Part shown: positions 901 to 1,538 of the stretch, in pieces
Layout of the letters: each line of letters starts with the position of its first letter
Numbering within the stretch: position 1 is the stretch's first letter
DNA from: Escherichia coli
GTDB lineage: Bacteria > Pseudomonadota > Gammaproteobacteria > Enterobacterales > Enterobacteriaceae
NCBI RefSeq assembly: GCF_003334355.1
Contig: NZ_QOWP01000016.1
DNA: 64,000 nucleotides
Direction: 5' to 3' (one strand)
The notes under the pieces: model-generated
Told to the model about the DNA's origin: nothing
Databases searched by the model: none
Seen by the model: the letters and a program-made list of their open reading frames with translations, nothing else
Program-made: the position numbers and the translations under genes

Positions 901-1370
901 CCATATAACCCGTTATCTCTTTCTCAAGTTTTTATATTAGCAGTACTTGTAATAAGCAACATATCCACGTAACACCTCATGTTCAAAATAGTTCTCCATG
1001 CCAGAGAGGTTCACAATTATCGATACAAAAAATTAAATTTAATCAAAGTGTTATTTGTATGATTCTTAAATCGTTAAGAAATTTTAATCTATTATTTTTT
1101 TAATATTGAATTAATGCCTGTTAATTTTTTCTTTAGAATAACAGTATATTTTTTAAGCTTGTTATTCATTGGTTAAGTAATAAATCTGGAAGTTTGTCTT
1201 TGTTTTGAGGCTAATGAGTGGTTTTACATAACCGCCTCTATACGCTGTTGATGAATAGTTCTTATGAATAAAGATATCCAGTTCATACTTTAAGTGAAAA
1301 TTGATAAAGTGCGATTTGTATTGTCTTTTATTCTAAAGACATCGAGTGTAGTTAATATTCCTTGTAAAAA

Positions 1371-1492
1371 CAGGGATAAACCGAACTAGTTAAAGTTTTT
1401 ATTATGTTCCCTGCATCAGCGGGGATAAACCGGACTTGTTATCATTTTTTAAGTTGTCGAACTTATGTTCCCCGCGTTAGCGGGGATAACCA
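1371..1492 (+). CRISPR. Degenerate mini-array (CRISPR2.2-like): one 5'-truncated repeat and two mutated repeats, two spacers
   Basis: CAGGGATAAACCG (1371-1383), ATGTTCCCTGCATCAGCGGGGATAAACCG (1404-1432), ATGTTCCCCGCGTTAGCGGGGATAACC (1465-1492); 32-bp spacer between the last two. Confidence 0.75.
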
Positions 1493-1538
1493 TTCAGGTA
1501 TGTTCAGGCCGGGCAGTTTCCCGCCCGGCCTTCCTCAC

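Follow-up and report, generated by a model that had tools for sequence, protein, structure and literature searches.

The window, a 64-kb stretch of Escherichia coli DNA, opens within the CRISPR-II locus, where the gene order is queE, leader2.3, CRISPR2.3, a separator, CRISPR2.2, a GC hairpin and ygcE. The CRISPR2.3 array (79..900) holds 14 type I-E repeats and has its crRNA sense on the + strand; the leader, towards queE, falls outside the window, ahead of its first base, and the terminal repeat (872-900) has the 3' end ...ACCA, an ending that is typical of the leader-distal ends of arrays and is seen at this locus. We found that the DNA that follows is AT-rich, with a GC content of 27.4% at 901-1370, below the 51.6% of the window as a whole and the 60% of the array, and ORF-poor, the longest ORFs being 25-31 aa. 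Next to it lies a second, degenerate mini-array, distal to the main array and flanked by ygcE (1539..3017, - strand), which encodes an FGGY-family sugar kinase of 492 aa. The earlier note had described an AT-rich, ORF-poor gap and repeat-like units with two spacers beside ygcE, and both descriptions hold; it did not recognise the feature as the named CRISPR2.2. The mini-array has the hallmarks of a type I-E array, namely I-E repeats, a single orientation and a palindromic core, and the sequence comparison indicates that the AT-rich stretch and the mini-array are almost certainly the 0.5-kb separator and CRISPR2.2 of the CRISPR-II locus in E. coli. Over 640 nt, K-12 MG1655 departs from the window at 2 bases, and its mini-array lies at 2,903,421-2,903,558 on the - strand. 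Of 5426 complete E. coli genomes from RefSeq, 4534 carry the region, in each case on the chromosome, and the separator occurs there as a single copy per genome, at this locus every time. CRISPR2.2 and the separator are thus an object already known, not a new one, treated at ygcE-ygcF/queE in several papers (PMC3903273, PMC3737337, PMC4489801, PMC2886076, PMC10910852). In these accounts the spacers are "invariable" and the 0.5-kb stretch is "non-coding, highly conserved"; CRISPR2.2 is the site adjoining ygcE that lies 0.5 kb away from CRISPR2.3 and has three repeats separated by two invariable spacers (PMC4489801). The mini-array described here fits this account in its site, distance and order and in its three repeats and two invariable spacers, with no structural difference. 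The same five papers do not include a diversity contrast to the flanks, decayed repeats within the separator or the hairpin kept in the first repeat.

Upon examining the mini-array on the + strand, we observed a degenerate full-length repeat R1 (1355..1383, 29 nt; ATATTCCTTGTAAAAACAGGGATAAACCG), a spacer S1 (1384..1403; AACTAGTTAAAGTTTTTATT) of 20 nt, which is 12 nt under the normal length, a near-canonical repeat R2 (1404..1432; ATGTTCCCTGCATCAGCGGGGATAAACCG), a spacer S2 of 32 nt (1433..1464; GACTTGTTATCATTTTTTAAGTTGTCGAACTT) and a terminal repeat R3 (1465..1492, 28 nt), whose hairpin is whole and whose 3' end is degenerate (ATAACCA). The period from R2 to R3 is 61 nt, which gives the 32-nt spacer, and that from R1 to R2 is 49 nt, which gives the 20-nt spacer. 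R2 matches the I-E repeat at 24/29 positions, and a scan recovered it as an I-E repeat match with 3 mismatches, for which 0 are expected by chance; R3 matches at 22/29 and R1 at 18/29, the 99th percentile of shuffles being 15. R1 had been taken for a repeat truncated at its 5' end and starting at 1371, a reading that does not survive the alignment in register, since the full-length repeat keeps both its hairpin and its 5' handle (ATAAACCG), with degeneracy in its 5' half. It folds as the 7-bp hairpin of canonical repeats (-7.9 kcal/mol, z = -2.9), held by the pairs U9-A18 and U11-A16 and a U8.G19 wobble. R2 has a U9.G18 wobble in its hairpin and an intact 5' handle. The canonical 7-bp hairpin is present in R1, R2 and R3 on the + strand, with worse folding on the - strand, and the G.U wobbles of R1 and R2 pair in + strand RNA only. 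In contrast, the pseudo-repeat at 989-1017 is truly decayed and has no fold. The mini-array therefore keeps, at the level of its sequence, what two Cascade-type crRNAs would need, namely Cas6e-type hairpins and 8-nt 5' handles in R1 and R2, and its degeneracy is limited to places that a crRNA would not need, in R1 the 5' half and in R3 the final bases. Two likenesses among spacers were set aside: S1 as a diverged copy of S2 is marginal (P about 0.055), and the resemblance of S2 to the spacer of the cas3-cse1 mini-array (common CTTGTTATC) is not significant (P about 0.12).

A GC hairpin (GGCCGGGC-N8-GCCCGGCC, 1507..1530) lies in the interval from R3 to the end of ygcE. It starts 8 nt past the ygcE stop codon and has a GC stem of 9-11 bp, with a folding energy of -20.6 kcal/mol for the + strand and -25.8 kcal/mol for the - strand. 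It has no U-tract on either strand, the tails being UUCCUCACUU (+) and UGAACAUACC (-), as had been noticed from the sequence, and an intrinsic terminator was rejected, with the U-tract missing and no call made by the terminator scan. The hairpin is kept in Escherichia lineages that lack CRISPR2.2, and its G.U-compatible changes give no significant preference of strand, with 4 of 5 stem changes in favour of the + strand by our tally. Small ORFs also fall in this interval. Those at 1404-1637 and 1465-1671 begin at the ATG of R2 and R3 and have no counterpart in the K-12 annotation; the earlier note was right to call the ORFs at 1404-1671 artefacts. The small ORFs of the gap and mini-array are not conserved in the divergent strain E69, and most substitutions fall at second codon positions. 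An Rfam scan over 1-1700 at E <= 1 returned sub-threshold chance matches only, inside CRISPR2.3.

We find that the separator consists of three parts: decayed repeat-spacer units, about 220 nt of fast-evolving AT-rich DNA and about 118 nt of conserved sequence. The left end of the gap (901..1017, + strand, 117 nt) holds two decayed units that prolong CRISPR2.3. One pseudo-repeat, at about 933-961, is recognisable solely through its E69 homologue; the other, at 989-1017 (TAGTTCTCCATGCCAGAGAGGTTCACAAT), has 17/29 matches and a lost fold. In E69, one of the two units lies exactly 61 nt past the last intact repeat. This part evolves at about the neutral rate and shares the known pattern of leader-distal decay, with sequence and hairpin lost at the old end of an array; unlike that pattern, the mini-array is older still by position and yet better preserved than 901-1017. 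The separator core (1018..1236) has 22.8% GC, is ORF-free and evolves fast, with indels. The conserved AT-rich block (1237..1354) lies directly upstream of the mini-array on its + strand, in a leader-like position. It contains a perfect 7-bp inverted repeat, TGTCTTT-N6-AAAGACA, at 1322-1341, and a boxA-like 12-mer with 2 mismatches at 1301-1312, on the - strand only. Exact and transition-tolerant scans of 1018-1354 gave no repeat remnants above shuffles, beyond those at 989-1017 and in the E69 unit. Additionally, no homologue of the separator was found outside Escherichia or in phages and plasmids.

In position and composition, 1018-1354 resembles a leader, with 23-29% GC upstream of R1 on the crRNA-sense strand. 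Like leader2.1 and leader2.3, it is AT-rich, non-coding and immediately upstream of the first repeat, its repeat-proximal 120 nt or so are conserved, and its length of 337 nt compares with 340 nt for leader2.3. The alignments gave no significant similarity: the Smith-Waterman score of the gap against leader2.1 was in the range of shuffles (137/300 reach it) and that against leader2.3 was borderline (18/300). Both real leaders carry a boxA-like element 78-90 nt upstream of the first repeat, whereas the conserved block has none on the sense strand, and an IHF consensus scan missed the true leader2.1 too and is hence non-discriminating. Unlike the arrays of these leaders, the mini-array gives no sign of spacer acquisition, its spacers being invariable. 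The comparison with the CRISPR2.2-2.3 region of other E. coli that had been proposed as a check identified the locus with CRISPR2.2 of K-12 and the left gap as array-derived. The gap may be a former leader, a reading that these data neither support nor exclude.

Next, we consider diversity across E. coli. In the sequences compared, R1-S1-R2-S2-R3 varies far less than its flanks. No other segment of the neighbourhood is as invariant as the mini-array taken together with the 118 nt that precede it, a result obtained with 14 complete genomes, with 54 metagenome contigs and with 5426 RefSeq genomes. Among 10 diverse genomes, pi at 1237-1476 was 0.0043, with 5 of 240 sites segregating, compared with 0.058 in the gap and 0.034 over all ygcE sites; at ygcE four-fold sites it was 0.09-0.13 (0.133 in the 10 diverse genomes), and the difference between the block and the four-fold sites is highly significant (Fisher test, P = 1e-22). 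Taken separately, 1237-1354 had a pi of 0.005-0.014 against 0.06 in the neighbouring gap. The pattern of low block diversity was repeated in the 54 metagenome contigs, and among the 5426 genomes 85% of block copies reached at least 99% identity to the window, a level attained by 57% of copies of the adjacent 240 nt and by 18% of copies of a 240-nt stretch of ygcE. S2 was unchanged in 4049 of the 4063 E. coli genomes that carry it, S1 had no segregating sites in the samples, and the invariance is strongest in S1-R2-S2, not in the upstream block. The ratio of pi to divergence from E69 was lowest in the block, at about 0.03-0.09, and stood at 0.2 for the gap and 0.4 for four-fold sites. Since the mini-array and about 120 bases upstream are far less variable than both sides, the mini-array is not a freely decaying relic, and the sequence data make it probable that the 1237-1476 block is under selective constraint. 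The earlier suggestion of a relic of an older array is thus correct for the two decayed units at 901-1017 and fails for the mini-array, the least variable segment.

Comparison with E69, a divergent lineage, points in the same direction. R1 has 0/29 differences, S2 2/32 and R3 2/28, a total of 4 over 89 sites against an expectation of 20-27, and ygcE four-fold sites differ at 14-30%; the description of the mini-array as decayed does not agree with a first repeat free of differences beside four-fold sites that reach 30%. At 1237-1354, 15.7% of sites differ, compared with 23-30% at neutral proxy sites. Natural deletions drop whole repeat-spacer units, such that 32F4 has R1-S1-R3 and E69 has R1-S2-R3, and each variant is still a regular repeat-spacer-repeat unit.

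Regarding the origin of the two-array arrangement, a foreign 0.5-kb insertion might have split a single CRISPR-II array into CRISPR2.3 and CRISPR2.2, which would fit any functional reading and which we consider doubtful. In its favour, a lone array without a separator, closed by the same terminal repeat and hairpin, is found in E. albertii, E. whittamii, Escherichia sp. MOD1-EC7003 and B2-type E. coli; for E. albertii, E. whittamii and B2-type E. coli, the terminal repeat of this single CRISPR-II array is a homologue of R3. The separator is, besides, strongly AT-rich. Against it, the separator has no terminal inverted repeats (best terminal inverted match 7 nt), no target-site duplication is evident at its borders on inspection, it lacks a phage or plasmid homologue, and its left 117 nt are array-derived. 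Furthermore, the terminal repeat of the single-array strains starts with GAG or GGG, not ATG, as expected if a CRISPR2.3 repeat had recombined with R3 and the DNA between them been deleted, so that repeated loss explains the distribution equally well. An insertion sequence or MITE was rejected for its lack of terminal inverted repeats, of copies elsewhere and of a phage or plasmid homologue.

As for function, the reading that we tentatively favour as the most likely for CRISPR2.2 is a fixed-guide mini-CRISPR. Under this reading, + strand transcription of the mini-array would either start in the conserved block upstream or run on from CRISPR2.3; Cas6e would cut the transcript into two fixed crRNA-like guides with 20-nt and 32-nt spacers; the two guides would load into Cascade; and selection would keep the spacers for a fixed task, either regulation of a host gene or a standing target, and not as adaptive memory. 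When the identity of the locus, the selective constraint and the crRNA-guide mechanism are taken as one package, we regard it as evenly balanced, the crRNA-guide mechanism by itself being less likely than not. Several observations are counted against the guide mechanism. Given the mutations per arm, the compensatory pairs of R1 would arise by chance in about 1 in 5 cases by our combinatorial estimate, and in one lineage the change T9A in R2 breaks a stem pair. No match of at least 9/12 to a sigma-70 promoter was found in 1237-1354, and the CRISPR2.2 unit is absent from B2-type E. coli, E. albertii and E. whittamii. A scan of the 64-kb window, the entire cas operon included, gave no PAM-flanked seed targets of S1 or S2 above chance; as a positive control, the same PAM-plus-seed scan recovers the known target of the cas3-cse1 mini-array. 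The sole perfect seed with a usable PAM (ATG) lies at 39698, within a coding region, with about 0.5 chance matches expected by our estimate. Likewise, protospacer searches of 50,697 phage records, 72,556 plasmid records, IMG/VR and all E. coli genomes gave none, S2 returning self matches alone from these sources. The best foreign match, in a terminase gene of Stephanstirmvirinae (24/27, E = 0.3), leaves the seed unmatched and has no PAM, and is at most a weak lead; for S1, a 17-base degenerate pattern matches many unrelated AT-rich viral contigs and is uninformative. Also counted against guides, two searchable K-12 data sets, whose tables are perhaps incomplete, contain no 3' ends or transcription start sites in the interval, and no S1 or S2 motif is reported in the published K-12 Cascade ChIP-seq, which gave motifs only for CRISPR-I spacers and one CRISPR-II spacer, CRISPR-II being called weakly transcribed in K-12 (PMC5904413).

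An inert relic, in which CRISPR2.2 and the separator would be what remains of an old array and its leader and would serve no function today, is in our view unlikely. Its spacers would be invariable merely because there is no working leader and no acquisition, and its low diversity would be a genealogical accident, such as a short recombination tract or a sweep that spread one allele. The degenerate repeats, the shortened S1, the lack of a target or protospacer and of transcript ends in the searchable K-12 tables and the demonstrably decayed array in the left part of the gap are consistent with such a relic, as are the tolerated whole-unit deletions and the total loss in B2-type strains and other Escherichia species. 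Moreover, relative to E69, polymorphism drops more than divergence in the block, as it would after a sweep. However, the relic leaves unaccounted for a near-invariant island of 240 nt between two highly polymorphic flanks in every lineage sampled, the independent conservation of R1, S2 and R3 against E69, and degeneracy placed only where a crRNA would not need sequence, with hairpins kept only on the + strand; what neutral decay does at this very locus can be seen 350 nt away, in repeats that have truly decayed.

A role of the conserved block that has nothing to do with Cascade, as a cis-acting or antisense element carrying the repeats as mere passengers, is quite improbable; candidates would be a protein-binding region, a promoter or regulatory region, or a - strand RNA running from ygcE through the mini-array. 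Conservation does reach 118 nt of non-repeat sequence upstream of R1 and takes in both the inverted repeat and the - strand boxA-like 12-mer, and with no - strand U-tract at the hairpin, ygcE transcripts might read through. Nevertheless, S1-R2-S2 is the most invariant part, above the upstream block, and the wobbles of R1 and R2 speak for RNA of the + strand; the inverted repeat is lost in E69, and boxA-like matches with 2 mismatches occur 13 times in the window. Nor does any ORF explain the conservation, as the natural 49-nt and 61-nt deletions shift every frame.

CRISPR2.2 was reportedly first described by Diez-Villasenor et al. in 2010, and the object itself is ordinary, being present in every K-12 genome and named since that year. 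What is useful is the finding that, unlike junk, the mini-array and the 118 nt preceding it show stronger conservation than the protein-coding gene beside them. If the constraint reflects fixed-target guides, this would provide a testable handle on why the H-NS-silenced type I-E system of E. coli persists, and would extend the idea of regulatory mini-arrays to a site far from the cas genes. If such guides regulate through Cascade, a conserved task would help to explain the persistence of both the silenced I-E system and the odd array.

Among the closest known systems are the CreA/CreR mini-arrays, whose crRNA-like RNAs steer Cascade to repress a promoter (bioRxiv 10.1101/2023.03.10.532045; PMC10120712). 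CRISPR2.2 differs from them in that it lies 16 kb from the cas operon and not inside it (its last base is 1492, and cas3 begins at 17862), which is counted against the guide mechanism, in having two spacers in E. coli, and in showing no PAM-flanked partial target for S1 or S2 across the 64 kb scanned; the same window does hold the cas3-cse1 mini-array known from the literature, together with the AAG-flanked target of that mini-array. The design is otherwise matched, with degenerate repeats in a short array of which the first (R1) keeps the 5' handle and the last (R3) the hairpin. Similarly, the spacers are fixed across strains with no acquisitions, and the E69 unit is exactly repeat-spacer-repeat. 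It is possible, if doubtful, that CRISPR2.2 is a functional, selectively maintained orphan relative of CreR/CreA, with a host or prophage promoter as its partially complementary target.

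We found that the window begins within the CRISPR-II locus of E. coli, reversed relative to the K-12 map, with the CRISPR2.3 array (79-900, + strand, crRNA sense; 14 type I-E repeats, GAGTTCCCCGCGCCAGCGGGGATAAACCG) ending in a terminal repeat (872-900, + strand) whose last bases are ACCA. The stretch that follows (901-1370) is AT-rich and ORF-poor, as the earlier note described it, with 27.4% GC against 51.6% for the window and a longest ORF of at most 31 aa. Between this gap and ygcE (1539-3017, - strand, 492 aa) we observe, all on the + strand, the repeats R1 (1355-1383), R2 (1404-1432) and R3 (1465-1492) and the spacers S1 (1384-1403, 20 nt) and S2 (1433-1464, 32 nt). 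R2 matches the repeat with 3 mismatches, against 0 such matches expected by chance, and R3 and R1 match it at 22/29 and 18/29 positions, against a shuffle 99th percentile of 15; the matches are far above chance, which confirms the repeats and two spacers first noticed from the sequence. The first repeat had been taken to be 5'-truncated and to start at 1371, a description that has to be withdrawn, as R1 in register is a full 29-nt unit (ATATTCCTTGTAAAAACAGGGATAAACCG). K-12 MG1655 carries the same 640 nt with 2 base differences and no annotated gene, and by Megablast 4534 of 5426 complete E. coli genomes have the region, in every case on the chromosome and adjoining ygcE. The feature is the already known CRISPR2.2 mini-array: CRISPR-II holds CRISPR2.3 and CRISPR2.2 "separated by 0.5 kb" (PMC3903273), and a 2024 paper describes "a 0.5-kb AT-rich sequence [that] splits the CRISPR2 array" (PMC10910852). 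Because CRISPR2.3 has its leader on the queE side, before the window begins, the gap lies downstream of this array and upstream of the mini-array. The window (1-78) opens in the terminal part of an IS421/IS186-family (IS4-like) element, 1-74 being 100% identical to IS421 ends present in 2188 genomes. This element stops 4 nt before the first repeat (79), so its insertion lies inside CRISPR2.3 and parts these 14 repeats from leader2.3; strain 214-4, the closest genome, shares the insertion. The CRISPR2.3 spacer at 353-384 (GGCACAAAAAAACCCGCGCACGGCGGGTTAAT) contains a complete intrinsic-terminator-like hairpin with a T-run on the - strand and probably derives from a terminator in the DNA from which it was acquired.

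Next, we compared sequence variation across the locus. Among 10 diverse complete genomes, nucleotide diversity is 0.058 in the gap (901-1236), 0.0043 in the block at 1237-1476 (5/240 sites segregating), 0.059 at 1493-1538, 0.034 over all sites of ygcE and 0.133 at its four-fold sites, the block differing from the last with P = 1e-22 (Fisher test). S1, R2 and S2 have zero segregating sites even when the genomes of lowest block identity are added. In 54 metagenome contigs, sampled independently, the values were 0.03-0.05 for the gap, 0.0095 for the upstream block (1237-1354), 0 for S1, 0.004 for R2, 0.007 for S2 and 0.085 for ygcE four-fold sites. When the 5426 complete genomes were compared with the window sequence as reference, 85% of block copies were at least 99% identical and 3 genomes fell at 90-95%, the corresponding shares being 57% and 29% for the adjacent 240 nt of the gap and 18% and 16% for 240 nt of ygcE. 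The numbers of genomes with the block (4164) and with the adjacent gap segment (4153) are near-equal, so there is no hidden diverged class of the block, and 4049 of 4063 genomes carry S2 unchanged. Against the divergent strain E69, the window differs at 0/29 positions in R1, 2/32 in S2, 2/28 in R3, 15.7% of the upstream block, 27-30% of the rest of the gap (with indels) and 14-30% of four-fold sites. The mini-array is not decaying and varies much less than its flanks. As polymorphism in the block is reduced more than divergence, a local sweep in E. coli could add to steady purifying selection. Separately, four-fold diversity of 0.085-0.13 in two independent samples makes the synonymous diversity of ygcE unusually high, apparently above what typical E. 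coli core genes show; this points to deep classes of alleles or to recombination near CRISPR-II with divergent lineages.

The left end of the gap is made of decayed array. In E69 one such unit (TCGTTCCCTGTATCAGCAATAAATAAC) lies exactly 61 nt past the last intact repeat, and 989-1017 in the window (TAGTTCTCCATGCCAGAGAGGTTCACAAT) agrees with the repeat at 17/29 positions and has lost its fold (z = -0.3). Past 1017, exact and transition-tolerant repeat scans gave nothing above shuffles. The rest of the gap has no terminal inverted repeats and resembles neither leader2.1 nor leader2.3, and phage and plasmid collections gave no homologue. The idea of a relic holds for the left part of the gap and fails for the mini-array. 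The hairpin at 1507-1530, between R3 and the ygcE stop codon, forms a stable structure whichever strand is read and, as first reported, lacks a U-tract; it is conserved even in lineages without CRISPR2.2 and therefore belongs to the end of ygcE or to that of the old array. The ORFs that start in the repeats (1404-1637 and 1465-1671) are artefacts, also as first judged.

Upon scanning one genome per species with YgcE, we observed a single array in E. albertii, E. whittamii, Escherichia sp. MOD1-EC7003 and the B2-type E. coli MS7163, in the order leader2.3, repeats, terminal repeat ending GGGGATAACCA, the same hairpin and ygcE, and the 0.5-kb separator is absent from all four. R3 is therefore the locus's old terminal repeat. 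One possible history is repeated loss of the separator through repeat-repeat deletion: the terminal repeats of the single arrays begin GAG/GGG and R3 begins ATG, exactly the outcome expected of such a deletion. The other is that the separator arrived in a single insertion. E69, with ygcE 92% identical at the DNA level, has a diverged separator and a two-repeat unit, R1-S2-R3, and strain 32F4 has R1-S1-R3, both being the expected products of recombination between repeats. In strains OkiPb01688 and 21EVA an IS1 lies inside the separator (about 60 nt in for OkiPb01688), and a deletion starting there removes CRISPR2.2, ygcE and several genes beyond it; IS elements do cause loss of the unit.

The unit structure of CRISPR2.2 is clear, its hairpins are strand-specific, and its degeneracy spares exactly what two crRNAs would need. 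R1 folds into a 7-bp hairpin with a 4-nt loop of the canonical-repeat type, at -7.9 kcal/mol (z = -2.9) on the + strand and -4.4 kcal/mol (z = -0.7) on the - strand, and its altered stem positions are still paired (U9-A18, U11-A16, U8.G19). The 8-nt 5' handle ATAAACCG is retained in R1 and R2, and a degenerate tail (ATAACCA) occurs in R3 only, whose 3' end would go unused. In the most likely mechanism, transcription of the + strand would start in the conserved block or come as read-through out of CRISPR2.3, Cas6e would cleave within all three repeats, and Cascade would be loaded with two fixed guides. The guide from S1 falls 12 nt short, equal to two 6-nt steps of the Cascade backbone.

Several results weigh against such guides. 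In the 64 kb, S1 and S2 have no target above chance, in the same scan that recovers the target of the cas3-cse1 spacer, and phage and plasmid sequences, IMG/VR and the E. coli genomes yielded no protospacer. The conserved block has no promoter match, and zero entries for the interval are listed in the searchable K-12 3'-end and TSS tables. K-12 Cascade ChIP-seq gave motifs for CRISPR-I spacers and one CRISPR-II spacer only, CRISPR-II being weakly transcribed (PMC5904413). CRISPR2.2 lies 16 kb from cas3, one lineage has a change in R2 that breaks the stem, and the unit is missing from several Escherichia lineages. The best foreign match, of S2 positions 6-32 to a Stephanstirmvirinae phage gene (24/27, E = 0.3), leaves positions 1-5 (seed) and the PAM unmatched and is possibly a trace of an ancient protospacer, or chance; the gene is annotated as terminase large subunit in FKP3 (a Klebsiella phage) and KP2025 and as a hypothetical protein in Klebsiella phage KP13-26. 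We regard a fixed-guide regulatory mini-CRISPR as a tentative, rather doubtful reading of CRISPR2.2.

CRISPR2.1 (26344-26600), adjoining cas2, is tiny, with leader2.1, two full GCGTCAGC-variant repeats, a single normal spacer and, at 26572-26600, a terminal repeat that is strongly degenerate. Leader2.1 carries a boxA-like GATCTTTAATAA 78 nt upstream of its first repeat, where boxA elements of Salmonella CRISPRs are reported to lie. A boxA-like 12-mer (GCACTTTATCAA, 2 mismatches) also lies in the conserved block at 1301-1312 on the - strand, antisense to the crRNAs; there are 13 such matches in the window against about 5 expected. The cas3-cse1 intergenic region (20343-20560, - strand) contains a CreR-like mini-array antisense to the cas operon, with a pseudo-repeat (20404-20432, - strand; ACCTTCCCTACTTAAGTAGGGATAAACCG) whose hairpin is held by compensatory pairs and whose 5' handle is intact, a spacer (20372-20403, - strand; TTATTGGTCTTGTTATCGTCATTGATACCAAT) and a second degenerate repeat overlapping the cas3 stop codon. 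The partial target of this spacer (20526-20557, 17/32 positions matched) is the only AAG-flanked, seed-perfect one in the window, and the element agrees with the E. coli I-E mini-array of Shmakov et al. 2023. We do not assign CRISPR2.2 to the CreR/CreA elements because two defining features of these were tested and not found in it. In published CreR/CreA mini-arrays the 5' handle is kept by the first pseudo-repeat and the 3' handle by the last (bioRxiv 10.1101/2023.03.10.532045; PMC10120712), and the design of CRISPR2.2 agrees with theirs; it may still work like a CreR/CreA element.
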